64,000 nt of DNA from Candidatus Peribacteria bacterium (GCA_943355155.1 CALREJ010000001.1:2785-66784), one strand, 5' to 3'. Shown: positions 20,109 through 35,352, counted from the stretch's first letter. Notes: generated from the sequence alone by a model not told the origin. Program-made: numbers and translations.

Positions 20109-23100
20109 ATGAACTCTCTTCCTTCCAGTATCGAGTCCTGTCTTCTTGATGCAGGCTTTTCCGGCACAGAAATCGTCATTTTGCAAAAGCTGCTCGAGAA
20201 CGATTCGCTCACCCTCCGTGAACTTGCGGCAAAAACGGGGAAGAGTACGGGCGTGCTCGATCAGGCCATGTCGAAACTTCTGAAGAAAAAAATCATCCAT
20301 CGCCAGATGGTCAATGATGCACCAAGATATATCCTTCAGTCGCTGCAGACCGTGCTCGATTGGATCCGTGATGACACGGAACTGCGTCAGCAGATGATGA
20401 TACGAAAATACCAAAATTTCGAAGCATTCCTTGCGTCTCTTCAGAAAAGAAAAACGCGACCCGAAATGGAATATTTTGAAGGAGAAGAAGGGATCCGTCG
20501 TGCGTACTCTCAGCTCCTCGATCGCGGGAAAGTATTTCTTTCCTACGGCCCTGTTCAATCCCCGGATATCGAAGAAGAATTGATCGACGTACGCAAACAC
20601 AATATCCGCGACCGAAAGAAGCGTGAAATTTTCTCCCGCGTCATCACCCAAAACACCCCGCTCGGTCGTCGTCTGCAATCCCGCGACCCCTTCGAATTCC
20701 GCCACACTGTCCTCGTCGATCCAGAAGAATACCCCTTCGCCTTCGAAACCATCATCGTGGGCGACACCGTCGCGTGTTTCCAGCTGAAAGACAAACGCGC
20801 CTGCTTCATCCATTACCCCGAACTCGCAGAGGAAGAGCGCGCCTTCTTCGAGAGTGTGTGGCAAAAAAACACAGTGCATACGCAAAAAGAGCCGGAGAGG
20901 AAAGAGGGGAGGGAGGTGATTGAAATGTCATCCCCCAGAAAAAAAGTACCGATGAGGGAAATCGTCAAAATACTCTTGCGAAAAAGAAACATTGGAATCT
21001 TGAGTGGTCTTTTTGTTCTCCTTTGTGCTCTTATTCCTGCAGCGTATTTTTATACTTTTTCAGTGACAAAGGCGGAGGTTGGCCAGCGATTGATGGCAAT
21101 TGTTTCGACTGCTGCAAAGGACATACGTGCAGATGATCTATCTGTACTTCACATCGCGAGCGACATGCAGCGTCCGGAGTATCAGAGAGTGTTTAACACA
21201 TTGAACGATGTGCGCAATCGGAACCACAATATTTTGTACATTTTTATCTACAGACCTACGGACATTCCGAATATGTGGGAATTTGTTGTCGATGCTGATT
21301 CCAATGTTAACTTACCTTTTGAAAGCGACGTGAATCATGATGGGAAGATTGATCCAAGTGAGCAGAATGTGTATCCGGGACGAAGCTATGACATGAGTAC
21401 CCAATCGCCTAAAATTTTGAATGAAGGAATGATCCGTCCGGTCTATGACACGACGACCTATACCGATCAATGGACGACAGATATCGCAGCGACAGCACCG
21501 ATTATGGATTCAAATGGTAATGGTGTGGCCGTCCTCTCCGCAGATATTTCCATGAAGGAACTTACGACTCTCGCATCCGCACACTTCAAACCTATTTTGT
21601 ATGGGTTGCTTGGAATGATTCTTTTGATTCTGATTGCGATGGGGGTGCAGGGGTGGGGGGTGCTGAGGGAGTGCTCTCTTTCAAACTTTAATTCACGATC
21701 ACGCTACACCCCCTTTTCCCGATGGGGCGAATTTTTCTTTAGTAAAGGAAGTGTAGCTATCTTCGGAGCATGTGCAGGATTATCCCTACTAGCGACATAT
21801 GCTTTCTACGCGCAAAATTTATATTTCAATACACAGCGCATTCGCGAGCAAGTAAAAAGCATCGCAGCGACAGGTGCGATTCAATTTTCTGCATCTGATA
21901 TCAATCAAGTGAGAAGCAAATATGATATTCAGAAGCCTGAGTACACAAAAATCATTCGTCAGCTCAATGATATACGCGATCAAAATCCCGATGTGAAATT
22001 TATCTACATCATGCGACCGACTGGAGATCCATTAAAATATGAATTCGTTGCAGATGCTGATTCCATTGATCCGGATAAAGTCTTTGATTTGAATCGTGAT
22101 GGAATACTGGATAAAGCAGATGAAAATATTGCGCCGGGAAGGCCATATGATGGCTCTCTTATTGATGTGTTACGTGATCATTCCTATACAGTGCCGATTG
22201 CGAGCAGTAAGGTATTTACGGATCAATGGGGAACGTTCATTTCTGGCTTCGCGCCAATCAAAGGTAGCGATGGCACTATCGTAGGTATTCTAGGAGTCGA
22301 TAAATGGGCAACCGATGCACACAACGCTACAAAAAATAGTTTTTCTTTGTGGGTTTGGGGCATAGTGTTTTTCCTTATTTTTTCTAGCTTAGGTCAGATT
22401 ATTTTTAACAGAGATATTCTTAGGGATTTGTACAAATCTATCAATGTGCGAAAAGTAATGATCAGCCTAGGAATCTCTTTCCTTTTAGCGACTTCCGTAA
22501 CCTATGGGCTCTATCTCTACACGCAAAAACTCACTCTTCAGCGCATGCAGCAGGTGGTGAAGTCTGTTGCAGAGGCTGCGGCATTGCAATTTAGTGCAGA
22601 TGATTTGAATGCCCTGCAAGTTGAAGAAGATTGGAAGAAGCCGGAGTGGGCGAAGGTGGTGAATCAGTTGAAACAAATTCGTGATAATAATAAGAATCTT
22701 GTCTACACATATATTCTAAGAAAAGATATTAAGGATGGCACAAAAATAAATTTTGTATCGGAAGCCGAATCAATTAATCCATATGTAAACATAGATAACG
22801 ATCCGAATAATAATATCGATGAAAATCAAGACGGCCTTATCGATGGAACACCAACAGGTGGCGATTATCTTGTTTGGCCTGGTCAACAATATGTAAATGC
22901 CCCGCCTGAAACCTTTCAAGCATATGCAGGTTCAACAACTAATCGGGAATTTTATGAAGATCAATTTGGCAAAGTGATTTCGGGTTATGCACCGATCAAA
23001 GATATTGCGGGAAAAACCGTAGCTGTTTTTGCAGCAGATATGCATGCCAATAAGTTGAATGAAATTGCAAAGAATAGCTTCATGCCATTCTACTTTTTTT

Positions 23101-23159
23101 TAGTAGTATTTATGCTTTCATTAATTATTCAATTCACTGCTTCCTATCGAAAATTTTGA
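20109..23159 (+). CDS. Fusion protein: TrmB-family transcriptional regulator, six TM helices and three tandem extracytoplasmic Cache/PDC-like sensor modules (1016 aa)
   Basis: N-terminal wHTH (GTEIVILQKLLENDSLTLRELAAKTGKSTGVLDQAMSKLLKKKII) and a TrmB-like C-domain run to about aa 255. Three modules then follow, each ending ...(Y/F)(T/E)DQ(W/F)G..ISG(F/Y)APIK...G..V(G/A)(I/V)... and each bracketed by hydrophobic helices. Confidence 0.8.
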   Translation: MNSLPSSIESCLLDAGFSGTEIVILQKLLENDSLTLRELAAKTGKSTGVLDQAMSKLLKKKIIHRQMVNDAPRYILQSLQTVLDWIRDDTELRQQMMIRKYQNFEAFLASLQKRKTRPEMEYFEGEEGIRRAYSQLLDRGKVFLSYGPVQSPDIEEELIDVRKHNIRDRKKREIFSRVITQNTPLGRRLQSRDPFEFRHTVLVDPEEYPFAFETIIVGDTVACFQLKDKRACFIHYPELAEEERAFFESVWQKNTVHTQKEPERKEGREVIEMSSPRKKVPMREIVKILLRKRNIGILSGLFVLLCALIPAAYFYTFSVTKAEVGQRLMAIVSTAAKDIRADDLSVLHIASDMQRPEYQRVFNTLNDVRNRNHNILYIFIYRPTDIPNMWEFVVDADSNVNLPFESDVNHDGKIDPSEQNVYPGRSYDMSTQSPKILNEGMIRPVYDTTTYTDQWTTDIAATAPIMDSNGNGVAVLSADISMKELTTLASAHFKPILYGLLGMILLILIAMGVQGWGVLRECSLSNFNSRSRYTPFSRWGEFFFSKGSVAIFGACAGLSLLATYAFYAQNLYFNTQRIREQVKSIAATGAIQFSASDINQVRSKYDIQKPEYTKIIRQLNDIRDQNPDVKFIYIMRPTGDPLKYEFVADADSIDPDKVFDLNRDGILDKADENIAPGRPYDGSLIDVLRDHSYTVPIASSKVFTDQWGTFISGFAPIKGSDGTIVGILGVDKWATDAHNATKNSFSLWVWGIVFFLIFSSLGQIIFNRDILRDLYKSINVRKVMISLGISFLLATSVTYGLYLYTQKLTLQRMQQVVKSVAEAAALQFSADDLNALQVEEDWKKPEWAKVVNQLKQIRDNNKNLVYTYILRKDIKDGTKINFVSEAESINPYVNIDNDPNNNIDENQDGLIDGTPTGGDYLVWPGQQYVNAPPETFQAYAGSTTNREFYEDQFGKVISGYAPIKDIAGKTVAVFAADMHANKLNEIAKNSFMPFYFFLVVFMLSLIIQFTASYRKF

Positions 23160-23196: not shown

Positions 23197-25038
23197 TTAT
23201 ATATCTAGTAAGAGCAAAATATGATCGTGATTTGCTTCAAAAAGAAACTGTGCGAGTCTCGGGCCAGAATCTTTCCCAAATAGCAAATAATAAATTTGTC
23301 GATAAAGAGCAAGTTGCTCAATTCTATTTTCCCTTTCTGTTGCGCCAAATCTTTTAGGTATTGAATAGAGAATCGACTCTAATTCTTCGACTTTCGAAAA
23401 TCTATTTTTTTTCAAAAAATTATGCAACTCTCTTATTTGATCAATATGTTTCAGCTCCATGTCAGACATGTATTCTATATTTGGCTCAGTAAGCAAACTA
23501 TGAATCATTCGAGAAGATATTTCCGAATATCTTTTCCCTTTATCTGTAAGTTCCAGCAGGTCAATATACATTTTTGCAAGCAAAATAGGTGCATCTTTTT
23601 TTACTGAATTCTTTTGGCCAAGCAATTTTTCAATATTTTTTGTCATTATTTTTTGCATTCCATTTCTTGATTTTCTTAGATTTTCCAAGTTTCCTAATTC
23701 CAAAATAGGTCTTACGATATAATCGTATATTTCTCGTTGTGGCAGTGTAGGTTTGCAAGTTATTTTTCGATTAATACTAACACTAGACGCTCCATGCCCG
23801 TAACCTCCATAGGGCTGAGTCCCTCTTTCTATGCCATGCGCATGTAAATGTGTATTTCTAATTATAGTACTCTCATCGTGCAGTAGTTTATCGTTAACAT
23901 ATTTCCCAGCCAAACTATCTATGTATTTGCTATCACCATAAACCGTGACATACATTGCGTTACGTGCATACTGATCATTTTCAAAATAATTAGAAAGCAT
24001 TACATCGTTTTCATATTCTTGTATAAAAAAAATTGGAGCAAAAACTTCATTATAATTACCCCCATCACGCAAAGGCTTATTTATTATTGTTGGCTCAACG
24101 ATTGACTGATTAGTGCGAATAACACCAGGTGTGTTTGAATTAATCCATTTTTTATTTTCAACTAAAAGCCCCTGTATTCTAATCAAATCTTCAATATCAT
24201 TAATTGGGCCAACGATACAGGATCTATCGTTGTAGTTACCAATTTTGATCCTTCTTAATTTTTCAAGCAATAGATTGTTAAATACAAGGAAAGATCTATT
24301 ATGAACAAGAATTGAATTTGGCGAGGCACAATCTTGGCCTTGGTTATATAGTTGCAATGTAAGAGCAGCTTCAACACTGTTAGAAATATCAGCGTGTTCA
24401 GTAATTATTAGGGGATTGTGACCGGCTCCATTTGTTATAAATAGGGTACGCTGATCAAAAACGGTACGCAAACGATCTGCGTGAAATGGAGTGCCAGTAA
24501 AAATAACTACGTCAGTAACTGGCTGATTTTCCTGTGTTTTGGTATTGATACATAAGGCCGTACGTTCAATTAAAAATTGTGCTCTCTCTTTTTTTGATAC
24601 ATGAATGTTTGGGAAAAAATCATGTATTTTTAGTATTTGTATAAGTTCTGGGAAAAAATATCGCATTCCTTGTGGTATTCTAAAATGTACCTCACTAGCC
24701 ATTAAAGAAGGAATAATAACAAAACAAGTTAGTGCGTAAAGTGGCTGATTCCGTGGAAGAAACGAAGTTACAGCACCAATGCGTAGCTTAAAATATTCAT
24801 TATTTTCATTGAGACTTCTTAAAAGATCTAAAGTGCGAGCAGTCTCATCCCTCACAACCTCAAAGCTTTCATACGTTGTTAATATTTTAGCAAGTGATTC
24901 AAAAGAGGCCTCAATATGTTCTGCAAATAGTAGGGCAATTTGATAACTTCTCTCAAAATCAATGAAGCTGTATTGCGATAAATCCTGAGTTGAATTTCTC
25001 ATGCCTGATAAATTATTAATTTCGTTAGCTATTAACAT
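23197..25038 (-). CDS. Aldehyde-dehydrogenase-superfamily (LuxC/acyl-reductase-like) enzyme fused to a class-I-LysRS-C-terminal-like helical domain (613 aa)
   Basis: ALDH-type Cys motif NQGQDCASPNSILV. NGAGHNP sits where ELGGKSP would be, so the Glu is absent. EVFAPIFF and PYGGYGHGAS are also present. The C-terminal ~150 aa ends ...LYRQIYYLLFGKDSGPRLAQFL, which resembles the FFKALY.VLLGKERGPRLGSF end of class I Lys-tRNA synthetases. Confidence 0.7.
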   Translation of the reverse strand: MLIANEINNLSGMRNSTQDLSQYSFIDFERSYQIALLFAEHIEASFESLAKILTTYESFEVVRDETARTLDLLRSLNENNEYFKLRIGAVTSFLPRNQPLYALTCFVIIPSLMASEVHFRIPQGMRYFFPELIQILKIHDFFPNIHVSKKERAQFLIERTALCINTKTQENQPVTDVVIFTGTPFHADRLRTVFDQRTLFITNGAGHNPLIITEHADISNSVEAALTLQLYNQGQDCASPNSILVHNRSFLVFNNLLLEKLRRIKIGNYNDRSCIVGPINDIEDLIRIQGLLVENKKWINSNTPGVIRTNQSIVEPTIINKPLRDGGNYNEVFAPIFFIQEYENDVMLSNYFENDQYARNAMYVTVYGDSKYIDSLAGKYVNDKLLHDESTIIRNTHLHAHGIERGTQPYGGYGHGASSVSINRKITCKPTLPQREIYDYIVRPILELGNLENLRKSRNGMQKIMTKNIEKLLGQKNSVKKDAPILLAKMYIDLLELTDKGKRYSEISSRMIHSLLTEPNIEYMSDMELKHIDQIRELHNFLKKNRFSKVEELESILYSIPKRFGATERENRIEQLALYRQIYYLLFGKDSGPRLAQFLFEANHDHILLLLDI

Positions 25039-25054
25039 GTATTTTTTGTGAGAA

Positions 25055-25405
25055 TTAATTTGTGACCTTCGGGAAATATAACATCAGAAAAGTGCCTGTG
25101 ATTGCAAAGGCTAATCCTAAATATTGCATCGCAGAAATTCGATTCCATTCTTGAAAAATTATCAATCCAACCATCACAGAAGTTATTGTTAATAAGGAGT
25201 CAATTGTTCCAGATGCTAGTGATAGACCAATCTTTGAGGTTGCAATTCCAAAACTAATATAAACAAACGGTGAAATTAAAACTAGTAGAAACAGCCAAAT
25301 AGATATTTTGTCAGTTCCTTTTGCCCAAATTGTGCTTATTGAATTTGCTAATACTGCAATTCCTACTGCCCCCAAAATGTATAACAAAAAAATCGGACTT
25401 TTCAT
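25055..25405 (-). CDS. Small 4-TM transporter of the SMR / ArnE-ArnF / EamA-half type (116 aa)
   Basis: Four hydrophobic helices in 116 aa. Lies 16 nt upstream of the reductase-like gene on the same strand. Confidence 0.65.
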   Translation of the reverse strand: MKSPIFLLYILGAVGIAVLANSISTIWAKGTDKISIWLFLLVLISPFVYISFGIATSKIGLSLASGTIDSLLTITSVMVGLIIFQEWNRISAMQYLGLAFAITGTFLMLYFPKVTN

Positions 25406-25630
25406 GAACTAAAGAGTAATGCTAACAACACTGTAAAAACAATTTTCATAATTATCATATACACGTACACTGTTAATACAATTCGAGATGCGTGCGCTAA
25501 TTCTCTGTTTATTAAGAAAGCATGTATTTTTTCTCAAAAAGCAATGTTTTTTGCATTTTTATTCGCCTTAGATGGCATATGTAAGGTCAAAACTTGATAA
25601 TCAAAGCGATTTTTGCTATAATTACTTGAT

Positions 25631-27091
25631 ATGGAAAAAACAAAAAACAAAAGATTAAGCTTGATTTGGGTGGGCACGGTAATTGTTCTTGGTGCAATAA
25701 TTGTCATTGCAATAATGTCTTGGTTTTTATATAAGCACACAGTAATTCTTTTGTCAGATAATTTAAGACAAAGATTGTTGTCGATAGCAATTACTCAGGT
25801 TGCCAATATTGATCCAGATGATATTCAATCTTTACAAGTGGAGGGTGATTGGAAAAAACCAGCTTGGTCACGTGTCGTAGGACAATTAAAGCGTGCGAAA
25901 AATAGCAATCCAAATATTGTTTATATGTACATTTTCAAAAAGTCAGATATTGATTCTACTAAAATGGTTTTTGTGGCAGATGCAGAATCTTTGAATCCAT
26001 ATGCAAATATAGATAATGATTTAGCAAATGATGTCGATGCGAATGGAGATGGGAAAATAGAGCCTGATGGAGCAGATAACTTGCAATGGCCAAGTCAAGA
26101 GTATCCAGAGCCACCCGCTGAGACATTTGAATCTTACAATGGACCACTAACTAGCAAAGATTTATATTCCGATGAATATGGGAAAGTATTAACTGGTTAT
26201 GCGCCGATTCTTGATTCGAATCAAAATGTTATTGCTGTTCTTGCAACCGATATAAGGGCGAATGATTTTTCAACAATTACTACACAAACACTTATTCCGT
26301 TTATTGGATTTATTATTTTCTTGGTTTTTGCGATTATTGTCTTGGCGCTATCTCTGATAATGGTTTGGAATAAGAGAGTTGAAGTTTTTGCCGAACTCGA
26401 CCGCCAAAAAGACGAACTGTTGGGTATGGTGAGCCACCAACTTGCAACGCCAGTTTCATCTTTGCGTTGGTATATGGAAATGTTTTTGGATGGAGATTTG
26501 GGTAAGGTCACGGATGAACAAAGGGTTCATCTTGTCTCTGCACAATCTGTTGCAACCAATTTATCCGATCTCGTGAGCCTTATTTTAGACGTGTCCCGTA
26601 TTCAACTTGGTCGTGTGAAGGTGGAGAAAGGCAAGTTGAAGTTGGACGATTTATTCAAGGAAATTTTAGATATTATAAAACCAAAGGCAGAACAGAAAGG
26701 CGTTCATTTTAAAGTATCTATTGATAAAAAATTACCCGTTGCGATGCTCGATAAGCGCTATACACACATGACTATTGAAAACCTTCTGAGCAATGCCGTG
26801 AAGTATACTCAGCCGAAGGGCACTGTGAATTTTACGGTCGCTGTGAAGGGTGAAACGCTCTACTGCGAAGTGTCGGATACCGGTGTGGGTATCCCCAAGG
26901 CAGACCAATCACAAATTTTCGGCAAGCTTTTCCGTGCGAGTAACGTAAGAAATGAAGTGGATGGAAATGGATTCGGTCTTTATGTGGCAAAGGGCGCTAT
27001 CGAGGCACAGGGAGGAAAGATCTGGTTCAAGAGTGAAGAGGGGAAGGGGACAACATTCTATGTTGAGTTGCCACTAAATGATGGAAAATAA
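25631..27091 (+). CDS. Sensor histidine kinase with extracytoplasmic Cache/PDC-like domain
   Basis: TM1, a sensor (aa ~45-215) paralogous to the modules of the 20109 gene, then TM2. H-box LLGMVSHQLATPVSSL, N-box LLSNAVKYT and G-boxes DTGVGI and GNGFGLYVAK. Confidence 0.9.
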   Translation: MEKTKNKRLSLIWVGTVIVLGAIIVIAIMSWFLYKHTVILLSDNLRQRLLSIAITQVANIDPDDIQSLQVEGDWKKPAWSRVVGQLKRAKNSNPNIVYMYIFKKSDIDSTKMVFVADAESLNPYANIDNDLANDVDANGDGKIEPDGADNLQWPSQEYPEPPAETFESYNGPLTSKDLYSDEYGKVLTGYAPILDSNQNVIAVLATDIRANDFSTITTQTLIPFIGFIIFLVFAIIVLALSLIMVWNKRVEVFAELDRQKDELLGMVSHQLATPVSSLRWYMEMFLDGDLGKVTDEQRVHLVSAQSVATNLSDLVSLILDVSRIQLGRVKVEKGKLKLDDLFKEILDIIKPKAEQKGVHFKVSIDKKLPVAMLDKRYTHMTIENLLSNAVKYTQPKGTVNFTVAVKGETLYCEVSDTGVGIPKADQSQIFGKLFRASNVRNEVDGNGFGLYVAKGAIEAQGGKIWFKSEEGKGTTFYVELPLNDGK

Positions 27092-27356: not shown

Positions 27357-30300
27357 ATGCCTCCATCCAGCACTCCAGAACACAGAAACAAAGACAGTAA
27401 CGAAAAGTTTGTCTTTTTGGATTATATTCCTCCCTTTGGTTCATATGAGCATATTCCTGAGCAAACACATTCTGTGTGGAGCAAACTGAGTGGCCTTTTT
27501 TCATCTGCCCGGAAGGCACGGAGGCCTTTCCAAAACTTTCCGGCGACTGCGCATGTGGAAACACTTGAGAAGCGCGCACTTCTTTCAAGCACGACTTCGC
27601 CAAGTCTCGAAATTCATACAGGTGAAGGGGAACTGGAAACTCATATTCATGATCTTGAAAAACAGATGGAAACGCTTGTGCGCGAGTTAGCAGCGAATGA
27701 CACAGCTCTCACGGCTGCTCATAAAGCAGTGGATAGTGGGAGAAATGCTCTCAGTGCTCGTCAGGCAACGCTTGATCATGCAGATGGCTTGGTTGCTGCT
27801 GATCTTTTGAAAGTCGCACCCGTTCTTGAGGCAGCAAGTAAAACTGTGCAGGCAAAGAAAGTATCGGATGCCGCTGATCTGCAGGTAAAACTTGGCACTG
27901 ACCGACTCGCTTTGGACACAGATGTCATGAAGCTTGCACGTACCGCCTACACGACTGCAGTTGCAGAACGCACGCACAAAAATCCACTATTCACTGCTGC
28001 GGTGGTAGCTCAGTGCAAAGCGGATTACACAGCAGCTTCAGCCGTGGTGACTGCTGATACGAAAGCAGTGTCCACGTTTCGTGCAACTGCGACCGCAGCC
28101 CGCGCAGCCCTAACTTCAGCACAAAAAGTAGAGGCGAAGGCACGCACAAAATATGCGCGCGATCTTACGACTCTAGCGACTGATCAAAAAAATCAAGAGA
28201 CTGCAATGCTATTGCGTGACGGCGCAGACACTTTTCTGAAAACTTCACTCACACAGGAATCAGAGTTACAAGATGCAGCAGCAAAAATTGAAAGTGATAT
28301 CACACGCTCGACTCGTGATCTGGCAGATGCCAAGGCCGAATACAGCGCACTGGCCGAAAGAAATGCCCTTGCAACGTCACTCAGTATCGTCGTACAGGCG
28401 GAACTTCAGGCCGAGGCAGAAAAAATCGCCTATCCGAAAATGTTTGTCACGTCGGTGCAGCGCAGTGATTTCGTTGAGTTTACCGTTCGCTACAGAACTC
28501 CATTGCCCTCGACAACATTTAGCGTCAAACGCGCTGCGAATGCACAAAATGAATATTTCGATGGGCCAAGTCTGGACACTCCTGTTCGCGATGGTGAGTG
28601 GAAGTTTACGATGGGTCGCGGTATTCCGAGATCAGAAGAGCTGACGATTCGTATGGTCAACGGCGAAACAGGAAAGGTAGTTGAAGAAGTGTATGGGTGG
28701 TTCAATAAGGATAGTCTTTCAGGTGGTATCAATACTGCTCAGACGTCCTTTGATATTGATGAAGAGGGAATGCTTAGTGAAAATCCCATTGCCCCTTCTC
28801 TGTCGGTCATTCGCGTTCAGGGCAATGCAGTGCTCCTCGCTATCGCAAGTCCGTTCGATCAAACCAATATTTATTCCGACACAGGCGGCCTGCTTTCCTC
28901 TGTAGAATTGTCACACAAGGGTGGCACCACCTTTACTCCCGTGACTATTTACCTCGATGCAGGTAATTGGAACGGTGATTACAAAATACATATGCAGGAA
29001 CGCCCGGGTGGTAAGGAGATCGACACGGTGAATCTTCACTGGGACAGAGACTCAAAAAGAGCGTCATTGATCGATAGCGCCGATACCTACACCGGCCCCG
29101 AAAACACAGATGGTACATTTGATGCAAAGCTAGCCCTCAATAGTATTCCGCTCACAATCGAAGATCCGGATATCGCTCGTATCCAAAGTAGCAATCTCTA
29201 CCAAGCGACGGATTCATTCGCAGGACCATTACGACTTTATATCAGTGCCGAACGTTTTCTGACAGACTTTTTCTACGCGGACTCTTCACCTTATGTGAAG
29301 TATCGAGCCGATCACATCGAAGCAACCATCGATGCCTACTGGGATCGTATTGGTCATACCTACAGTCGAGATGCGGCAAGGGATACTATTCACAAGGAAA
29401 AGGCTGCAGTGGAAAAACAGCACATGGATATGCTGCATGATCGAGAAAATGGGGCAAGAGAGCTGATCCAAAGTGCAGTCAATATTTTCCTGAAAATCCT
29501 TCGCGGCGAGTCTGATAATTTTCCTCTTCAGGATCTGGATAAGCGTGTGACATGGTGGAATGAACGCGGCCAGATCTGGTGGCTGAATCAAGTCGGTGTT
29601 TCCAGTTTCAACAGAACCCACCTCCTCAATGCAGCCAAAATCATTTTCAATAACCAGTGGCAGTATTTGTTGCAGGTGAATAATGATGTGTTGCAGTTGC
29701 GTACGTATGAGGATAGGCAGAGGGAAGCAGGACTCGCAAAAAATGCCGAAGGACAGTGGAATGCGGTATCTCCACAAGAGCCGGAACTTATTGCACCTGG
29801 TATTGATCGCAACGCACTTGTGCGTGCTGCCCGCATTGATTGGGTGATGAGAAATTCGCCGGATTCACGCATCGTTGCAATGCATGGCGATCAGAGAGAT
29901 GTATTCGTGCTTACTTTATCGAATTTTTTGTCGCAAAACCCAACCGCTGATACCCAATCCTCCATTATCGTTGCAATGAATTTAGTAGATGAACGAACGA
30001 CGGATCTTCTGAAAAACGGCGGCGTCCGTATTTCGGGTCCCACACATTCAGATCAAAAAGAAGCAGCCGATGCAATCGCAAATGTTCCTCAGCGCACACT
30101 CTACAACGAAGCCTTGTCATGGTATGACAACACTCCAGACAGTTTGCACGGCACCCTGAGTCTTCGTACAGATACTATTGTCGGGAAGATGATGATGGGT
30201 GCTGCGAGAAAATTATGGATGGAGCCGACCGCAGAAAAAAGATGGGAAATTGCTTTCACTCTGCAGCGACTCACAGATATTCCTGCGAAAAAATTCATGG

Positions 30301-31364
30301 ATATCTATGCTGCAGCAGTAGACACTTCAATTTTCAGTTCGAATATCACAAAACTTCTCGCAGACGCGCAATATGAAGTGCGCTTGTCACCGGATACGTC
30401 TTCTAGTCCACGTTTCACTGCTGCTCATCCCGATATCCCGAAATCGTCAAATCATGTGTACGATGGCAGCAGAGATATTCGTGTTCGATTCGATCTCCTC
30501 CCCTTCGGACAGGATTTCCTCTATGTCCAAGCTATCTTCAACGGTAACGTAGTAGCATCCTCGCGCTCAGCATTATTCATCGACATTCCCTTCTCTACCT
30601 TCAACCAATCTATGCCCAGTGCCACCATCACGCTCCGCGCAGGACTGTCGAATGGTACGACGATAGAAATAGAGAGTGATGCGTTTGTGATTGCTCCAGA
30701 TGCACTTTTTGATAAAGATTTCAGTAAAGTTTTAGATAGTGCTCCTGCAGATAAAAGATCTGCAGTTTCCGGAGCTTTAAAAATGGATCTTAGCAATCTG
30801 CCCGCAAAAAATAATTTGCTGCTTACATTTTTAGAGAAAAAATATTTCAGTACAGGTGAATTGCAGTTTGATGTATATAACAATACTAAAGGTTTTGAAT
30901 TACAGAGTACGCAAGAACATGGTGGTGATCAGTGCAAAACCTGGTTGTATAATATCGTGAACGAAGAGACAAATGGAGATACTCTCTTACCTCCAAATGC
31001 TACCAAGAGCACATGGGATTTAGAGAACAATAATGAAATTTCAACAATTTCCTCTGGTATAAAAGGAGAATTTGAGACCAAGACAATCGATTGTGTGAGC
31101 GGAGATATTGTGCAGGTCGATTATAGTGGTAGACAACATACAATGGTTATTGGAAAAGTCGAGAACACGGGTATTTGGTTCTTTGATTCAAATTTTGGTG
31201 AATTGCAAGAATATGAGATGGATCCAAATGATTCGACTAAATTTTTACTTGATGTAAATGGTAATAAAAATCTACTACAAGATGATGAAACAGTGAGGTA
31301 TCACTTTATTTCCTACGATACGCTTAATAAAAATGCGCTGGAATTTTCAATTTACAGGCTATAA
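27357..31364 (+). CDS. Large exported protein (1335 aa) with a basic N-terminal LE.R.LLS motif, an Ala/Thr-rich coiled-coil region and a C-terminal papain-like (NlpC/P60 or CHAP type) Cys-His module
   Basis: N-terminus ...SSARKARRPFQNFPATAHVETLEKRALLSS. aa ~120-380 are A/T/K/E-rich and heptad-like. C-terminus: GGDQC(1193)KTWLYN ... GDIVQVDYSGRQH(1261)TMVIGKV..GIWFFDSN. Confidence 0.8.
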   Translation: MPPSSTPEHRNKDSNEKFVFLDYIPPFGSYEHIPEQTHSVWSKLSGLFSSARKARRPFQNFPATAHVETLEKRALLSSTTSPSLEIHTGEGELETHIHDLEKQMETLVRELAANDTALTAAHKAVDSGRNALSARQATLDHADGLVAADLLKVAPVLEAASKTVQAKKVSDAADLQVKLGTDRLALDTDVMKLARTAYTTAVAERTHKNPLFTAAVVAQCKADYTAASAVVTADTKAVSTFRATATAARAALTSAQKVEAKARTKYARDLTTLATDQKNQETAMLLRDGADTFLKTSLTQESELQDAAAKIESDITRSTRDLADAKAEYSALAERNALATSLSIVVQAELQAEAEKIAYPKMFVTSVQRSDFVEFTVRYRTPLPSTTFSVKRAANAQNEYFDGPSLDTPVRDGEWKFTMGRGIPRSEELTIRMVNGETGKVVEEVYGWFNKDSLSGGINTAQTSFDIDEEGMLSENPIAPSLSVIRVQGNAVLLAIASPFDQTNIYSDTGGLLSSVELSHKGGTTFTPVTIYLDAGNWNGDYKIHMQERPGGKEIDTVNLHWDRDSKRASLIDSADTYTGPENTDGTFDAKLALNSIPLTIEDPDIARIQSSNLYQATDSFAGPLRLYISAERFLTDFFYADSSPYVKYRADHIEATIDAYWDRIGHTYSRDAARDTIHKEKAAVEKQHMDMLHDRENGARELIQSAVNIFLKILRGESDNFPLQDLDKRVTWWNERGQIWWLNQVGVSSFNRTHLLNAAKIIFNNQWQYLLQVNNDVLQLRTYEDRQREAGLAKNAEGQWNAVSPQEPELIAPGIDRNALVRAARIDWVMRNSPDSRIVAMHGDQRDVFVLTLSNFLSQNPTADTQSSIIVAMNLVDERTTDLLKNGGVRISGPTHSDQKEAADAIANVPQRTLYNEALSWYDNTPDSLHGTLSLRTDTIVGKMMMGAARKLWMEPTAEKRWEIAFTLQRLTDIPAKKFMDIYAAAVDTSIFSSNITKLLADAQYEVRLSPDTSSSPRFTAAHPDIPKSSNHVYDGSRDIRVRFDLLPFGQDFLYVQAIFNGNVVASSRSALFIDIPFSTFNQSMPSATITLRAGLSNGTTIEIESDAFVIAPDALFDKDFSKVLDSAPADKRSAVSGALKMDLSNLPAKNNLLLTFLEKKYFSTGELQFDVYNNTKGFELQSTQEHGGDQCKTWLYNIVNEETNGDTLLPPNATKSTWDLENNNEISTISSGIKGEFETKTIDCVSGDIVQVDYSGRQHTMVIGKVENTGIWFFDSNFGELQEYEMDPNDSTKFLLDVNGNKNLLQDDETVRYHFISYDTLNKNALEFSIYRL

Positions 31365-32067
31365 CTATCTTTTTTTACTATTGTTAGTGGTAAGTATTTC
31401 GGCGTGTAATAGAGCTGTTTCTACTAACTCCCACAATAATTATAGCAATAAAAATTCTCAGGTGTGTGCTATTGTAGATAAAGCGAAATGTGATAAAAAC
31501 TTTTGTAAACCGGGATATAAAACCTTTGAAAATTGGGAGATTGCGAGTGCAAGTGGAGGTTATGATTTTCTTACCGGAGATTGTGATACTGCTTTGTTAC
31601 TGCCAACGGTTCCCTCTGATTGGGTATTTCGTATTTTGCCTGATTCAAATATCGAATTATCGCTTCCTCCTAATGCAAAAATAAATGCAAAATATCTTAA
31701 CTCAAATAAAAAAGGATTTTTTGAACAAGGCCCATTTTTTTCTTGGATGATCGAAAAAAGCGAATGGAATAAATCAACAGATGATTTTCTTGATGCTCAG
31801 TGTGCAGGTGCTACAACATTCGCTTTTTCAGAAGAAAAAGGAGATTATCAGGGGTCATATTCCGCAGTGGGTAAATTTGTTTCTGGCATTAAACAAATGA
31901 ACAATGGATTCGAGGTTGCGAAATTTCAACCAAAATGCGCAAATATGATGGAATTTTTGATCCGTTACAACAATGTGATTTATGTTTTTTCTTCTCTTGG
32001 GGAAAATAGCCATGAGAGTGAAGAGAGGTTTGAAAGAAGTATTTTGAATGCAAGAGTATTCAAATAG
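31333..32067 (+). CDS. Lipoprotein (244 aa), candidate immunity protein
   Basis: Its ATG lies 32 nt inside the 3' end of the preceding gene. The signal plus lipobox is LLLLVVSISAC. AT-rich like the upstream C-terminal module. Confidence 0.65.
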   Translation: MRWNFQFTGYNYLFLLLLVVSISACNRAVSTNSHNNYSNKNSQVCAIVDKAKCDKNFCKPGYKTFENWEIASASGGYDFLTGDCDTALLLPTVPSDWVFRILPDSNIELSLPPNAKINAKYLNSNKKGFFEQGPFFSWMIEKSEWNKSTDDFLDAQCAGATTFAFSEEKGDYQGSYSAVGKFVSGIKQMNNGFEVAKFQPKCANMMEFLIRYNNVIYVFSSLGENSHESEERFERSILNARVFK

Positions 32068-32159
32068 CCTTAGTTTTTGTATTCTTCTGCCAAAGAATCC
32101 AGAATCGTTGCTGCGCAAGAGATTGACATATTTAATTATTATATTAAAATATTTATAAT

Positions 32160-32975
32160 ATGTTGCTTGACGATATATTGGCTCAGGCTAATTTTGATCT
32201 AACCAGAGTAGAAACAAATGATTTAATGCAGGATCCGCGATATTGGATGTTAGGTGAAAATCAACATTGGTTTCGCATGCAACTACTCGAAGCCATTCCT
32301 GTCTGCGTTGCTGATGTATCAACACTTCGCATTCATTCTTCAGAACATCGTATACGAACAAGAATGGAACGTTTATTTTCTCGAGAAAATACTGATGATT
32401 CCTACATGCCAGGTAAGAATCATCAAGATGAAAAAGTGAGGAAAATTACTAGTGGGAATAATGGACTGCTTGTGTGGCCTGCACAAAGTGGTATTGAAAC
32501 GATGCCAGCAAAACTTCTTGAGCACTTGGAACACCAAAATGTTATTTTCCATAAGCTACGCAATGGTTTATGGCTAGTTATGAATGGTCAAAGGAAGGAT
32601 GTGCCAGATATAAAAAATGCGAAGGTCAACATCCGCGAGTTGAGCAATCAAATTCTGACCACACTTGAAAAACATGGAAAAGTTGTAGGTGATTTCCAAG
32701 CTGAAAATGCAACAAGGCTTTGTGTGTGCGTAAAACAAACGCATGGCTTACCCGATATGAGAGTAATTGCAAATTTAAATTATCAAAAATGGATAGAGCA
32801 TCAAGTTGCTCTTTATAGAATACAGCGAGATATTGCAAAAATCGTTTCTCCTGAAAAACTTCATTTTTTAATGGAGGGCGTAGATCAATCTCAATGGCAA
32901 GAAGCAGTTGATGCAATAAAAAAAACCCCCCCGAGCGATGTTGGATATGCTTCAGCCATTGACTTCAATTTCTGA
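32160..32975 (+). CDS. Hypothetical protein (271 aa), possibly the 5' fragment of a frameshifted gene
   Basis: ATG-started AT-rich ORF. An A8C7 homopolymer pair at 32918-32932 lies just before its stop, and the next frame opens there. Confidence 0.55.
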   Translation: MLLDDILAQANFDLTRVETNDLMQDPRYWMLGENQHWFRMQLLEAIPVCVADVSTLRIHSSEHRIRTRMERLFSRENTDDSYMPGKNHQDEKVRKITSGNNGLLVWPAQSGIETMPAKLLEHLEHQNVIFHKLRNGLWLVMNGQRKDVPDIKNAKVNIRELSNQILTTLEKHGKVVGDFQAENATRLCVCVKQTHGLPDMRVIANLNYQKWIEHQVALYRIQRDIAKIVSPEKLHFLMEGVDQSQWQEAVDAIKKTPPSDVGYASAIDFNF

Positions 32976-33195
32976 AGATACCTATAGGCCAAAGAAGACA
33001 GATGAAATTGAGCGGTTGTTTATAGAAAAGGATTATCATAAAGCCTTGCACGAACTTAGTCTTTTAGAAGGGGGGAATGTATTCATCCATGAACAATTAG
33101 CAAAGGGTCATACGTTTGAAGGAAGAATACATGGTTTAGCATCTAAAAAAGAAGATGCTGTATTGGATGAATGGATGATTCTAAGATATTTCTGA
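32938..33195 (+). CDS. Hypothetical ORF (85 aa), probable middle fragment of the same disrupted gene
   Basis: Frame +1 relative to the 32160 ORF and open from 32920 onward, inside the A-run. Confidence 0.35.
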   Translation: MLDMLQPLTSISEDTYRPKKTDEIERLFIEKDYHKALHELSLLEGGNVFIHEQLAKGHTFEGRIHGLASKKEDAVLDEWMILRYF

Positions 33196-33247
33196 AAGTG
33201 CTTTTACGACATTAATAGATACAGAGATTTCAAAACGGTTTGATCGC

Positions 33248-33481
33248 TTGCACCCTCAAATAATCAAGTTAATGAAAAAAAATTTGGGAATGAAGGATGT
33301 GGGTATTTTAATTCTTGGCGGTGCACATTTCAGTTCTGGATGGAATAAAAAAATACCAATTGAATGTAATGACAAGTTGATGGAAGATTATTTCAATAAA
33401 TCTAAAGAATTAAAAGACATGCGCCTCATTGTCGTAGACCCACACTGCTATGGTGGGATCGATAATAACATTGGTTCATGA
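33248..33481 (+). CDS. Hypothetical ORF (77 aa), probable 3' fragment of the same disrupted gene
   Basis: Frame is open from 33185 and overlaps the end of the previous fragment (stop at 33193-33195). It is again shifted +1. The listed start is TTG. Confidence 0.35.
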   Translation: MHPQIIKLMKKNLGMKDVGILILGGAHFSSGWNKKIPIECNDKLMEDYFNKSKELKDMRLIVVDPHCYGGIDNNIGS

Positions 33482-33618
33482 CTCGGTGTGAGAATGTTTT
33501 AACTATTTTAGGAACGTCATATTAAGCGAAAACATGTTCATCCTTCTATACATTTTTGTGCTGTAAAAAAATTCAGGATTAACACGTTGTTGCTATATCT
33601 ATCTGCTATCATCCCCCC

Positions 33619-35352
33619 ATGCTCACAAACCCCGAGATTGCGGCGGTGTTCGAGAGGATTGGGAAGATACTCGATTTGCGTGGGGAAAATGTGTTTCGGG
33701 TGCGGGCGTATCAACGCGCGGCGCAGGTGATCGAATCGCTTTCGGAAGAGTTGAAGTCGATTCATGAGCGGGGCGGGCGTGATGCGCTTTTGGAAATTCC
33801 GGGGATCGGGCAGGACTTGGCAGATAAGATCATTGAGATGCTTGCGACGGGTAAATTGAAATATATTGCAGAACTCCAGAAGACGATGCCGAAGGGGCTT
33901 TTTGACATCATGGAAATTTCGGGGATGGGACCGAAGAAAACGAAGATGTTGTGGGAAAAATACGATATCAAAAATATTGCGGAGCTCGAGAAATTGATGA
34001 AGTCGGGAAAACTTTTGAAGGTGAAGGGGTGGGGAGAGAAGTCTGTCGAGAATGTACTCACGGGAATCGCAGCAAAGCGTGCGCACAGTGGTCGGACATC
34101 ACTGCCTACTGGGCTCGCAGTTGCAGAAATGCTGAAGGAAGAATTACTCAAAACTGGGCTCTGTGACAAAATTGAAATCGCGGGAAGTGTGCGGCGGCGC
34201 AAAGATACGATCGGCGATCTCGATATTTTGGTTGCAAGTAAGAAACCAGAAAAGGTCATGAAAGCATTTTGCACGCAAAAAGACGTAGCGCAGATTTTGG
34301 CTCAGGGAGAGACGAAATCGAGTGTTCGACTCAAGAACGGATTGCAGGCCGATTTGCGTGTGCTCGACATCAATGTGTTTGGCGCAGCACTCCACTACTT
34401 CACCGGAAGCAAGGAGCACAATGTTCATATTCGCCAGCTCGGGATCAAACACGGACTCACCATTTCCGAGTATGGCGTCTACAAAGGAACTGCGGAGAAA
34501 AAGGGGAAATTGATGGCATCGAAAACAGAGGAAGATATTTACCGTGCAGTCGGACTCCCGTTCATCGAACCAGAACTTCGTGAAGACAAATGGGAAGTAG
34601 AAGCAGCTCAGAAAAAAATGCTCCCCGATCTCATCACGCTTTCAGATCTGCGAGGAGACCTCCATCTCCATAGTAATTTCAGTGATGGTGCCGCAACGAT
34701 GATCGAGATGGCTCAGGCTGCGAAAAATGCCGGTCTTGAATATATCGCAATCACCGATCACGGCTCTCCGATGGGCATGGTGTACGGCATCAAAGAAAAA
34801 AATATCAAAGAGTATTTGAAAAAAATTGACGAAGCACGGAAGGCAGTTCCGGGCATTCACATCCTCGCCGGAACGGAAGTTGATATTCTCGAAGATGGCA
34901 GCTTGTATCTATCAGACAAAATCCTCAAACAACTTGATTGGGTCGTGGCTTCCATTCATGGACATTTCAAGATGACCCATGCTGCGATGACGAAGAGAAT
35001 TATCCGCGCAATCGAACATCCGCTCGTGAATGTCATCGCACATCCAACAGCACGACTCCTCCTCAAACGCGATCCGATCGAATACGACATGGAAGCGGTA
35101 CTGAAGGCAGCATCAAAAAATAACGTCGCGATGGAGATCAACGCATCTATCGAACGTTTGGATCTAAATGATCTTCATGCGAAGCGGGCCAAAGAACTGG
35201 GCATCATGCTCACGATCGACAGCGACGCCCACCACCCCCGCGACCTGAGTTACCGCTTTGGGATTACTCAGGCACGGAGGGGATGGATCGAGAAGGGAGA
35301 TGTGCTCAATACGAAGTCGTGGAAGGAGTTTGAAAAGTGGAGGAACGCATAG
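33619..35352 (+). CDS. Family X DNA polymerase with C-terminal PHP phosphoesterase domain (PolX)
   Basis: HhH-rich N-terminus (NPEIAAVFERIGKILDLRGENVFRVRAYQRAA), a pol-beta-like nucleotidyltransferase (GSVRRRKDTIGDLDILV) and a PHP domain (GDLHLHSNFSDG...ITDH). Confidence 0.9.
   Translation: MLTNPEIAAVFERIGKILDLRGENVFRVRAYQRAAQVIESLSEELKSIHERGGRDALLEIPGIGQDLADKIIEMLATGKLKYIAELQKTMPKGLFDIMEISGMGPKKTKMLWEKYDIKNIAELEKLMKSGKLLKVKGWGEKSVENVLTGIAAKRAHSGRTSLPTGLAVAEMLKEELLKTGLCDKIEIAGSVRRRKDTIGDLDILVASKKPEKVMKAFCTQKDVAQILAQGETKSSVRLKNGLQADLRVLDINVFGAALHYFTGSKEHNVHIRQLGIKHGLTISEYGVYKGTAEKKGKLMASKTEEDIYRAVGLPFIEPELREDKWEVEAAQKKMLPDLITLSDLRGDLHLHSNFSDGAATMIEMAQAAKNAGLEYIAITDHGSPMGMVYGIKEKNIKEYLKKIDEARKAVPGIHILAGTEVDILEDGSLYLSDKILKQLDWVVASIHGHFKMTHAAMTKRIIRAIEHPLVNVIAHPTARLLLKRDPIEYDMEAVLKAASKNNVAMEINASIERLDLNDLHAKRAKELGIMLTIDSDAHHPRDLSYRFGITQARRGWIEKGDVLNTKSWKEFEKWRNA

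Follow-up and report, generated by a model that had tools for sequence, protein, structure and literature searches.

A trimmed fusion of aldehyde dehydrogenase and class I lysyl-tRNA synthetase in Candidatus Peribacteria as a candidate lysyl-tRNA-dependent reductase

What is the function of an aldehyde dehydrogenase (ALDH) that carries the end of a lysyl-tRNA synthetase (LysRS) as its C-terminal domain? This question is raised by an open reading frame (ORF) of 613 amino acids (aa) found in a 64,000-nt stretch of DNA from a Candidatus Peribacteria bacterium (GCA_943355155.1 CALREJ010000001.1:2785-66784), hereafter called the window, in which all positions are counted from the first letter of the stretch. 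The encoded protein, referred to as the ALDH-tail protein, consists of an ALDH-like module, a linker and a domain homologous to the C-terminus of class I LysRS (LysRS-I), and its gene lies next to the genes of a small protein with four hydrophobic segments (4-TM protein) and a sensor histidine kinase (Table 1). It is best explained as a trimmed descendant of the ALDH–LysRS-I fusions of Patescibacteria. Tentatively, and at a little under an even chance, we propose that it reduces a thioester with NAD(P)H in a reaction that depends on Lys-tRNA(Lys).

The motifs on which the original prediction for this locus had relied were all found in their places (NQGQDCASPN at 24316-24345, NGAGHNP at 24412-24432, EVFAPIFF at 24025-24048 and PYGGYGHGAS at 23785-23814), and FGKDSGPRLAQFLFEANHDH is encoded at exactly 23221-23280. 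The Pfam analysis assigned the 613-aa protein to Aldedh (PF00171) with E=1.7e-19 and 70.2 bits against a cut-off of 23. The full-length AlphaFold model, with a mean predicted local distance difference test score (pLDDT) of 88.8, matches classical ALDHs structurally along ~450 columns (Foldseek, E~1e-18), and the protein belongs to the ALDH superfamily with a complete fold. The hidden Markov model (HMM) alignments to solved ALDHs placed E331 and F333 opposite the E-x-F motif that binds the NAD ribose, N203 opposite the Glu of ELGGHAP and C237 opposite the catalytic Cys. Although identity among 28 family members falls to ~50%, N97, N203, C237 and E331 do not vary in any of them, and Asn also occupies the general-base position in the fusions of Photorhabdus and Pseudomonas described below. 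As the general-base Glu is absent, with Asn203 in its place, the protein does not belong to the hydrolytic ALDHs. The top sequence matches are aldehyde-oxidising ALDHs. The earlier assignment to an ALDH that keeps the Cys and lacks the general-base Glu was thus borne out by the profile, the fold and the HMM alignments.

The variable linker (~55 aa), some of which is disordered in the model, occupies the place that the synthetase catalytic core takes in full fusions, and the tail follows it. NCBIfam TIGR00467 (archaeal-type class I LysRS) matches aa 521-601 of the protein with E=1e-6 at profile positions 429-501 of 515, with a score of 27.6 bits against a cut-off of 147.55. The comparison of the tail alone with the PDB gave a sole match, the LysRS-I of Pyrococcus horikoshii (1irx; E=1.2e-4), and the profile of the tail family likewise retrieved only 1irx from the whole PDB (E=3.5e-9, residues 447-517 of 523). 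A separate model of the tail (pLDDT 93.7) matched 1irx in Foldseek with a probability of 1.0 and a TM-score of 0.58-0.60, and the next structural matches were the C-terminal helical anticodon-binding domains of bacterial glutamyl-tRNA synthetase (GluRS). Moreover, aa 500-613 share 43% identity with the C-terminus of a Patescibacteria fusion (locus L045, E=2e-20) and 38% identity with a free LysRS-I (L046, E=1e-16), and all three sequences close with ...GPRLxxFL.........LLD(I/V). These results assign the tail to the terminal sub-domain of the alpha-helical anticodon-binding region of LysRS-I. The anticodon-binding domain of this enzyme has been described as an alpha-helix cage homologous to its counterpart in bacterial GluRS, in which mutations, including those of residue 417, alter the discrimination of the anticodon.

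A resemblance to the end of LysRS-I had been noted earlier; it held in the TIGR00467 match, in the profile and Foldseek matches to 1irx and in the identity to Patescibacteria LysRS-I, and the ALDH fold and the 1irx-like tail were recovered from the models of the whole protein and of the tail, respectively. The extent given to the tail was corrected from ~150 aa to ~115 aa (500-613) after the linker. The expected synthetase profile was found in NCBIfam, but Pfam gave no match for the tail alone and has no model covering this sub-domain. The catalytic domain of LysRS-I (PF01921) is not matched by the window protein, in which no Rossmann domain, HIGH or KMSKS motif is present. Because the catalytic domain is absent, the protein is not a LysRS and is unable to aminoacylate tRNA.

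Homologs of the full-length protein form more than 400 clusters at 50-58% identity, nearly all of them from metagenomes of Patescibacteria (candidate phyla radiation, CPR). In databases they are named 'aldehyde dehydrogenase family protein', 'hypothetical' or, at JGI, 'lysyl-tRNA synthetase class 1', and some members bear the JGI name 'acyl-CoA reductase-like'. A scan of loci with one genome per species returned 80 loci, in which the ALDH module was found together with class I LysRS, whole or as a tail, in every arrangement. Type A is a single polypeptide of ~940-970 aa with a complete LysRS-I followed by the ALDH module and occurs in Photorhabdus, Xenorhabdus, Brenneria, Pseudomonas and Saccharothrix. 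Accessions of the Photorhabdus and Pseudomonas fusions are WP_049582623.1 and WP_217854218.1. Its LysRS-I part matches PF01921 with E=5e-71 to 2e-80 and contains HIGH as PHIGT and KMSKS as KISKSKG, while its ALDH module shows ~40% identity to the window protein with identical N, C and E residues. In Streptosporangium, Kibdelosporangium and Crossiella, LysRS-I and ALDH are encoded by separate overlapping genes, LysRS-I first. The LysRS part of the Photorhabdus fusion is classified as a divergent paralog, since it scores under the NCBI equivalog cut-offs; type A hosts translate with class II LysRS.

In Patescibacteria, the order is reversed. Type C consists of ALDH followed by a full LysRS-I in a single ORF of 950-1130 aa (L042, L045, L049 and L055) and is represented by at least 36 Patescibacteria clusters, with P0151 and P0172 as further examples of the fusion; in L046, ALDH and LysRS-I are adjacent genes. 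The LysRS parts of type C carry HFGN and KMSGSKG and pass the TIGR00467 equivalog cut-off over their whole length (372-378 bits vs 147.55), and the ALDH module of the window protein is 52-57% identical to the ALDH part of these fusions. In type B, to which the window protein belongs, LysRS-I has been reduced to its C-terminal ~115 aa; complete Patescibacteria genomes with this type include CP060229.1 and OZ246403.1. Type T (P0191, P0192 and P0195; 680-700 aa) joins ALDH to the last ~230 aa of LysRS-I and retains the whole helical anticodon-binding region. The neighbour-joining (NJ) tree of the ALDH modules, which has no support values, placed type B within the type C radiation and type T in a different type C subclade. 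The nesting of the two truncated types in different subclades suggests two or more independent losses of the catalytic core, each of which spared the tRNA-recognition end, and the tree is indicative only. The survey of the domain fusion and its neighbours that had been proposed for this locus thus revealed the linkage to LysRS-I in both orders and in unrelated phyla. No description of the family was found, either under a database name or in full-text literature on a LysRS–ALDH fusion or a lysyl-tRNA reductase; the literature matches for 'lysine aldehyde' concern collagen allysine and not this family.

The tail profile retrieved only 347 representatives among 1.84 billion proteins. Fragments aside, these are free LysRS-I, where the tail is at the extreme C-terminus, and proteins of types B and C. 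The most conserved tail positions (N520, Y558, Q575, Y583, G592-P-R-L595 and F598-L599) are common to types A, B and C, to free LysRS-I and to the Pyrococcus enzyme. G592, P593 and F598 are invariant, and the conservation of the tail equals that of the enzyme core.

In the ALDH superfamily, the loss of the general-base Glu leaves an acyl-enzyme that is not hydrolysed and is either reduced, as in LuxC, ProA and acyl-CoA reductases, or passed to a nucleophile other than water. Across three phyla, and with either of the two in first place, the module has been fused to an enzyme that activates lysine with ATP and releases nothing but Lys-tRNA(Lys). A Lys-tRNA reductase is the most economical reading of these data, because the fusion partner activates lysine, the anticodon-binding end survives the trimming and a LysRS is encoded next door in some loci. 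In the mechanism that we infer, the tail would recruit Lys-tRNA(Lys) charged by the cell's own LysRS, and Cys237 would attack the aminoacyl ester, with Asn97 serving as the oxyanion hole, to give a lysyl-thioester enzyme. The thioester would escape hydrolysis because the water-activating Glu is replaced by Asn203, and it would be reduced by NAD(P)H to L-lysinal, an alpha-amino aldehyde, with the release of free tRNA. Alpha-amino aldehydes such as lysinal cyclise or dimerise spontaneously, to dihydropyrazines. The co-transcribed 4-TM protein, putatively DMT/SMR-like, would export the cationic product, and the adjacent kinase might sense this product or tie its synthesis to an external cue, which is the most speculative step of the scheme. 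The reductase recruited to an aminoacyl-tRNA, as first suggested for this protein, therefore stands as far as its domains are concerned and gains support from the LysRS-I fusions and adjacency, the losses of the core, the nearby LysRS genes and the transporters, while its mechanism stays a proposal. The data establish the fold, the catalytic residues, the origin of the tail, the domain architectures and the linkage of the genes; that the protein binds tRNA, works reductively and uses lysine, and that its partners export and sense the product, is proposed.

Genes for a bona fide LysRS of class I or II were found near the gene of a truncated form in three loci (L085, L036 and L048). In L085, of type T, a class II LysRS (525 bits vs a cut-off of 427.6) is encoded 1.8 kb from the gene that joins ALDH to the anticodon-binding domain, and in L036 and L048 a free LysRS-I of 521 aa with HIGH and KMSKS is encoded within 2 kb of the type B cassette. 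In L087, which carries a full type C gene and is syntenic with L085, the corresponding gene (2877-4124 (-), 415 aa) encodes a truncated, sub-threshold LysRS-II-like paralog. This protein falls below the lysS cut-offs and matches the lysS models from ~58-102 onward, and its N-terminal anticodon-binding part appears to be missing; standing beside a full ALDH–LysRS-I fusion, it recalls the paralogs of the EpmA/GenX type. A tRNA dedicated to the cassette was rejected, as no recurrent tRNA gene is present near any cassette. The synthetase genes near the Paceibacteria loci, which encode a non-discriminating aspartyl-tRNA synthetase and a tryptophanyl-tRNA synthetase, were likewise rejected as partners and reflect synteny only.

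The gene context was counted over 84 loci and showed a conserved cassette of the putatively DMT/SMR-like 4-TM protein, the ALDH-tail protein and the sensor histidine kinase. In 34 loci the gene of the small 4-TM protein comes first, a median of 5 nt ahead of the ALDH-tail gene, and in seven loci it is replaced by the gene of a different multi-TM protein of ~210 aa. A kinase ortholog (40-68% identity) follows downstream on the same strand as the type B gene in half of the loci (42/84), a median of 22 nt away. The association survives rearrangement, for the kinase genes of the window and of L010 are inverted but have remained adjacent. A transporter gene stands beside the module in nearly all lineages: an MFS transporter in Proteobacteria and actinomycetes, where it comes directly after the type A module, Photorhabdus excepted, and the 4-TM protein in Patescibacteria. 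This adjacency in almost every lineage suggests that the product leaves the cell, and the strict kinase linkage of type B suggests a unit of production, export and sensing. Taken further, the cassette could be a self-contained module of cell–cell or host–symbiont signalling in Patescibacteria, in which an aminoacyl-tRNA reductase that evolved independently of the known one turns Lys-tRNA into a diffusible aldehyde, imine or pyrazine derived from lysine, to be exported and read by the kinase, although we hold this to be rather improbable. If it were true, a related metabolite would be expected from the LysRS-I–ALDH–MFS cassettes of Photorhabdus, Xenorhabdus, Pseudomonas and actinomycetes.

Several results weigh against a Lys-tRNA reductase with an exported product. 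The first concerns the enzyme itself. Of the two profiles that had been anticipated for the module, Aldedh was found and LuxC (PF05893) was not, with no match to the window protein at E<=1. The window protein is thus not detectably a LuxC-family member, though the same model scores above its cut-off on the Photorhabdus fusion of L078 (26 bits vs 21) and was recorded for two Patescibacteria fusions (P0157 and P0178). The second concerns the tail, which keeps only the last ~115 aa of an anticodon-binding region of ~200 aa, so that tRNA binding is a prediction; its net charge is not distinctly basic and is uninformative as a proxy for RNA binding. Moreover, position 503 (23530-23532 in the window) is Arg in 96% of window-type proteins, whereas Trp takes this place in every full fusion (100%) and in most free LysRS-I (85%), and this class-specific change may indicate that the function of the tail domain has shifted. 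As for the substrate, no LysRS and no tRNA-Lys gene is present within the 64-kb window, so the source of Lys-tRNA was not located there, and no tRNA gene, tRNA-Lys included, recurs near the cassettes. The NJ tree on which the repeated loss of the core relies carries no support values.

The partners of the enzyme add to these points. The 4-TM protein is weakly indicated as an SMR/DMT-like transporter. The 116-aa protein of the window has no Pfam match and reaches NCBIfam EbrB at E=0.012; among its homologs, EamA, Multi_Drug_Res and TMEM234, all of which we take to belong to the DMT clan, were each matched below threshold in 7 of 19 members, and the family profile gave no match in the PDB. Of the SMR/ArnE-like exporter that had been predicted, the four hydrophobic segments were thus recovered, while the profile support is confined to these sub-threshold matches. 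The ~190-aa extracytoplasmic domain of the kinase carries a DxNxDG loop, but against PDB and Pfam it yielded only non-significant EF-hand-like and Cache/PDC-like matches, which point to no class of ligand. Types C and T have different neighbours, with neither kinase nor 4-TM gene beside the full fusions, and the cassette contained no response regulator or additional enzyme in the loci counted.

The last result is also what would be expected of a regulatory or sensor protein that binds tRNA(Lys), whether charged or not, and/or NAD(P)(H), modulates the kinase and reports the translational or redox status of a cell that has few other regulators. The very tight linkage to the kinase, seen in 42 loci with a median gap of 22 nt and surviving inversion, and the discarded catalytic core of the synthetase are consistent with such a role. 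However, all catalytic ALDH residues but the general base are invariant despite the divergence to ~50% identity, a conserved membrane protein is co-transcribed, and in Proteobacteria, actinomycetes and the full fusions of Patescibacteria the modules occur without a kinase but with transporters or other enzymes. We consider a regulatory function unlikely.

The halved anticodon-binding region, its charge and the Arg503/Trp difference, which suggests an altered function, can also be read as signs that what is left of the synthetase serves as a structural element or for docking to proteins and that the acyl donor is not a tRNA, being for instance Lys-AMP from a docked LysRS, or an acyl-CoA or acyl-phosphate unrelated to lysine. 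Reductases of the ALDH superfamily normally use acyl-CoA, acyl-phosphate or acyl-protein, and the JGI label 'acyl-CoA reductase-like' given to some members points the same way. Nevertheless, conservation in the tail matches that in the enzyme core, with G592, P593 and F598 invariant, and the key motif of the tail is common to genuine LysRS-I. Two truncations, apparently independent, have spared the tRNA-recognition end, and in one of them the anticodon-binding region is complete; moreover, synthetases do not release free Lys-AMP, and the recurrent partner is specifically LysRS-I and not a CoA ligase. A docking remnant with another acyl donor accordingly has little probability in our judgement.

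The reverse direction, an oxidative acyl transfer in which an amino-aldehyde and NAD(P)+ give a thioester that is passed to CoA, phosphate or the tRNA 3' end for aldehyde salvage or detoxification, in the manner of CoA-acylating methylmalonate-semialdehyde dehydrogenase, fits the Glu-to-Asn change equally well as a transfer to a nucleophile other than water and agrees with the aldehyde-oxidising top matches, but it is very unlikely, given that the fused LysRS-I keeps HIGH and KMSKS and makes activated lysine with ATP, a partner that an ATP-free route to the same product does not need, that no gene for a source of alpha-amino aldehyde lies nearby and that the associated transporters are more easily read as product exporters.

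The Lys-tRNA-dependent reductase proposed here resembles several known systems in part. The chemistry would be like that of glutamyl-tRNA reductase (GluTR, HemA), where a Cys of the active site attacks the ester of an aminoacyl-tRNA and NADPH then converts the resulting thioester into an alpha-amino aldehyde; GluTR is, to our knowledge and as far as found in the literature, the only described aminoacyl-tRNA reductase. However, its fold is unrelated and not of the ALDH superfamily, and no GluTR family was among the Pfam and NCBIfam matches of the window protein. GluTR also recognises tRNA-Glu by its own domains, with no borrowed synthetase domain, and its amino acid differs from the proposed lysine. 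LuxC/LuxE and ProA/ProB are reductive enzymes of the ALDH superfamily which form a Cys thioester and have an ATP-using activating partner, sometimes fused, as in eukaryotic P5CS, although the LuxC model, as stated above, matches the Photorhabdus and two Patescibacteria fusions and not the window protein. CoA-acylating ALDHs such as methylmalonate-semialdehyde dehydrogenase, which has Asn at the Glu268 position, are classical ALDHs with the general-base Glu replaced, in which a nucleophile other than water resolves the thioester; they are oxidative, work with CoA and have no association with tRNA synthetases.

On the synthetase side, the LysRS-I of P. horikoshii (1irx; TIGR00467) is homologous over its last ~115 aa, including the Y..L.G...GPRL..FL motif, while its catalytic Rossmann domain, HIGH and KMSKS are absent from the window protein; relatives of the latter contain a complete, equivalog-grade LysRS-I. 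A precedent for a LysRS fused to a consumer of Lys-tRNA outside translation is LysX of Mycobacterium tuberculosis (NF002821), but there the synthetase is of class II and the partner is an MprF-type membrane transferase that makes lysyl-phosphatidylglycerol, not a reductase. The proposed net reaction, from an amino acid and ATP through a carrier to an amino-aldehyde, is also that of the A-T-R modules of nonribosomal peptide synthetases and carboxylic acid reductases (Lys2, PvfC), whose products often become pyrazine or pyrazinone signals. The parts are unrelated, namely an adenylation domain, a phosphopantetheine carrier and an SDR-type reductase as opposed to a synthetase, a tRNA and an ALDH fold. 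The layout of the cassette recalls cqsA-cqsS and lqsA-lqsS, where a synthase gene stands beside the gene of a membrane sensor kinase; this is an analogy of layout without homology, and the sensing of the product by the cassette kinase is speculative.

The recurrent coupling of a predicted acyl reductase of the ALDH superfamily with a tRNA synthetase or its putative tRNA-binding remnant is new. If the protein does reduce Lys-tRNA, it would be the second aminoacyl-tRNA reductase in biology, built on a fold different from that of GluTR, and the enzyme would have been assembled by fusion of an ALDH with a synthetase that was then trimmed to its tRNA-recognition end. It would also be a new way of drawing charged tRNA out of translation and into the synthesis of small molecules. 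The coupling of ALDH with LysRS-I and its stepwise trimming would surprise specialists. The family is widespread in Patescibacteria, whose physiology and signalling remain barely explored, and the strict kinase linkage offers a testable handle on signalling in the CPR. Among the carriers, Photorhabdus, Xenorhabdus, Pseudomonas and the actinomycetes are cultivable and genetically tractable, and the predicted amino-aldehyde can be searched for directly.

Table 1. Coordinates of the ALDH-tail gene, its parts and the adjoining features in the window.
Feature	Position	Strand	Basis or remark
ALDH-tail ORF, 613 aa, ATG start; ALDH-like module, linker and class I LysRS C-terminal domain (type B)	23197..25038	-	sequence, profiles, AlphaFold model
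ALDH-fold module, aa 26-445	23704..24963	-	Pfam Aldedh, structure superposition
Asn97 (PRNQP), equivalent of oxyanion-hole Asn169; invariant	24748..24750	-	HMM alignment to solved ALDHs
Asn203 (NGAGHNP), at the general-base Glu268 position of hydrolytic ALDHs; invariant Asn	24430..24432	-	HMM alignment to solved ALDHs
Cys237 (NQGQDC), equivalent of catalytic nucleophile Cys302; invariant	24328..24330	-	HMM alignment to solved ALDHs
Glu331 (E-V-F-A-P), equivalent of nicotinamide-ribose-binding Glu399; invariant	24046..24048	-	HMM alignment to solved ALDHs
Linker, aa 446-499, variable; low-confidence segment aa 476-486	23542..23703	-	alignment, AlphaFold model
Tail domain, aa 500-613, homolog of the C-terminal ~115 aa of class I LysRS	23200..23541	-	profile, structure, identity
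G592-P-R-L595, most conserved tail motif	23254..23265	-	family alignment
116-aa ORF, four hydrophobic segments, 16 nt upstream of the 613-aa ORF, co-oriented	25055..25405	-	cassette partner; weak DMT/SMR-like signals
Intergenic region from which the 4-TM/ALDH pair and the kinase diverge	25406..25630	.	promoter-like consensus matches only
Sensor histidine kinase, 486 aa: TM, ~190-aa extracytoplasmic domain, TM, HisKA, HATPase_c	25631..27091	+	ortholog of the kinase of related loci

The divergent intergenic region contains a strong promoter-like site directed toward the kinase (25594-25622, 11/12 matches) and a weaker one directed toward the 4-TM gene (25476-25448), both being consensus matches only. 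The scan for promoters and terminators gave counts no higher than those in shuffled sequences.

The GC content at third codon positions (GC3) is 0.25 for the ALDH gene and 0.27 for the 4-TM gene, compared with 0.36-0.58 around them (0.36 in the kinase gene, 0.41-0.58 in the neighbours), which agrees with the AT-rich block reported earlier. The accompanying claim that the two genes look inserted between two paralogous sensor genes held only in part, as the kinase is a conserved member of the cassette, adjacent in the 42 loci. Moreover, the ALDH gene is AT-richer than its flanks in 31 of 32 loci, with a median difference of -0.06 and values down to -0.24 in high-GC hosts, the kinase being intermediate, and is thus a trait of the whole family and not peculiar to the window. 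A recent insertion was ruled out as the sole explanation, given the low GC in 31/32 loci and the membership of the kinase in the cassette. The low GC of the ALDH gene suggests either that the cassette has spread laterally among Patescibacteria more than once or that the family has a compositional bias of its own.

tRNA-Lys is a classic target in phage defence. The PADLOC analysis gave no defence-system match for the ALDH-tail or 4-TM proteins and matched the kinase via its generic ATPase region only, and the reading of the cassette as a defence system was rejected for want of a PADLOC match.

The sensor domain of the kinase recurs in a neighbouring 1016-aa protein (20109-23159 (+)), which contains three membrane-separated copies of the ~190-aa domain with 30-46% identity and an N-terminal winged-helix segment (TrmB/MarR-like, sub-threshold) but lacks a kinase domain. 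The cassettes of L006 and L010 are likewise flanked by multi-sensor paralogs of this kind, of 1009 aa and 719 aa, respectively. In L043, a window-type homolog (1-1524) has a C-terminal extension of ~20 aa past the usual LLD(I/V) end; no kinase gene stands next to it, and a 275-aa ORF is followed by a response-regulator-like gene (2453-2833, judged by sequence alone).

The neighbours of types C and T include, in one set, a GTP-cyclohydrolase-II-like protein, SAM methyltransferases, an MFS transporter or cysteinyl-tRNA synthetase. A ~530-aa protein with a C-terminal GTP-cyclohydrolase-II-like domain is encoded downstream of the ALDH–LysRS-I fusions in L042, L045, L047 and L055, and SAM-dependent methyltransferases likewise follow the full fusions in L045 and L046. 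The neighbourhood of the full fusions may be a small cluster for biosynthesis or RNA modification. In the Patescibacteria sub-lineage of L085-L087, a gene for a protein of 320-370 aa without a Pfam or NCBIfam match overlaps the start of the ALDH–LysRS gene (L085 5913-7004, L086 6036-7004, L087 5905-7014), and a Pol-beta-type nucleotidyltransferase with a weak MntA-like match is encoded after it (L085 9075-9641, L087 9895-10527). A PEP-utilizer/PPDK_N protein of ~350 aa and the class II LysRS or LysRS-II-like paralog are encoded nearby in the same sub-lineage.

Elsewhere in the window, a 1335-aa ORF (27357-31364) has no Pfam match, and downstream of it lies a second AT-rich block (31000-34000, GC 0.34-0.40). 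Within this block, a 271-aa ORF without a Pfam match (32160-32975) is located just before the gene of a PolX-PHP DNA polymerase (33619-35352). In a 4241-aa ORF (41562-54287 (-)), only SdrD B-like repeats are recognisable, and the 1140-aa ORF that overlaps it (54284-57706 (-)) has a weak match to MG2 (alpha-2-macroglobulin). These ORFs of 4241, 1140 and 1335 aa are likely to encode large surface proteins typical of episymbiotic Patescibacteria. In L004, too, the ALDH-tail cassette occurs together with a PolX-PHP gene and with a gene for an alpha-2-macroglobulin-like protein of 2006 aa, which suggests a neighbourhood related to that of the window.

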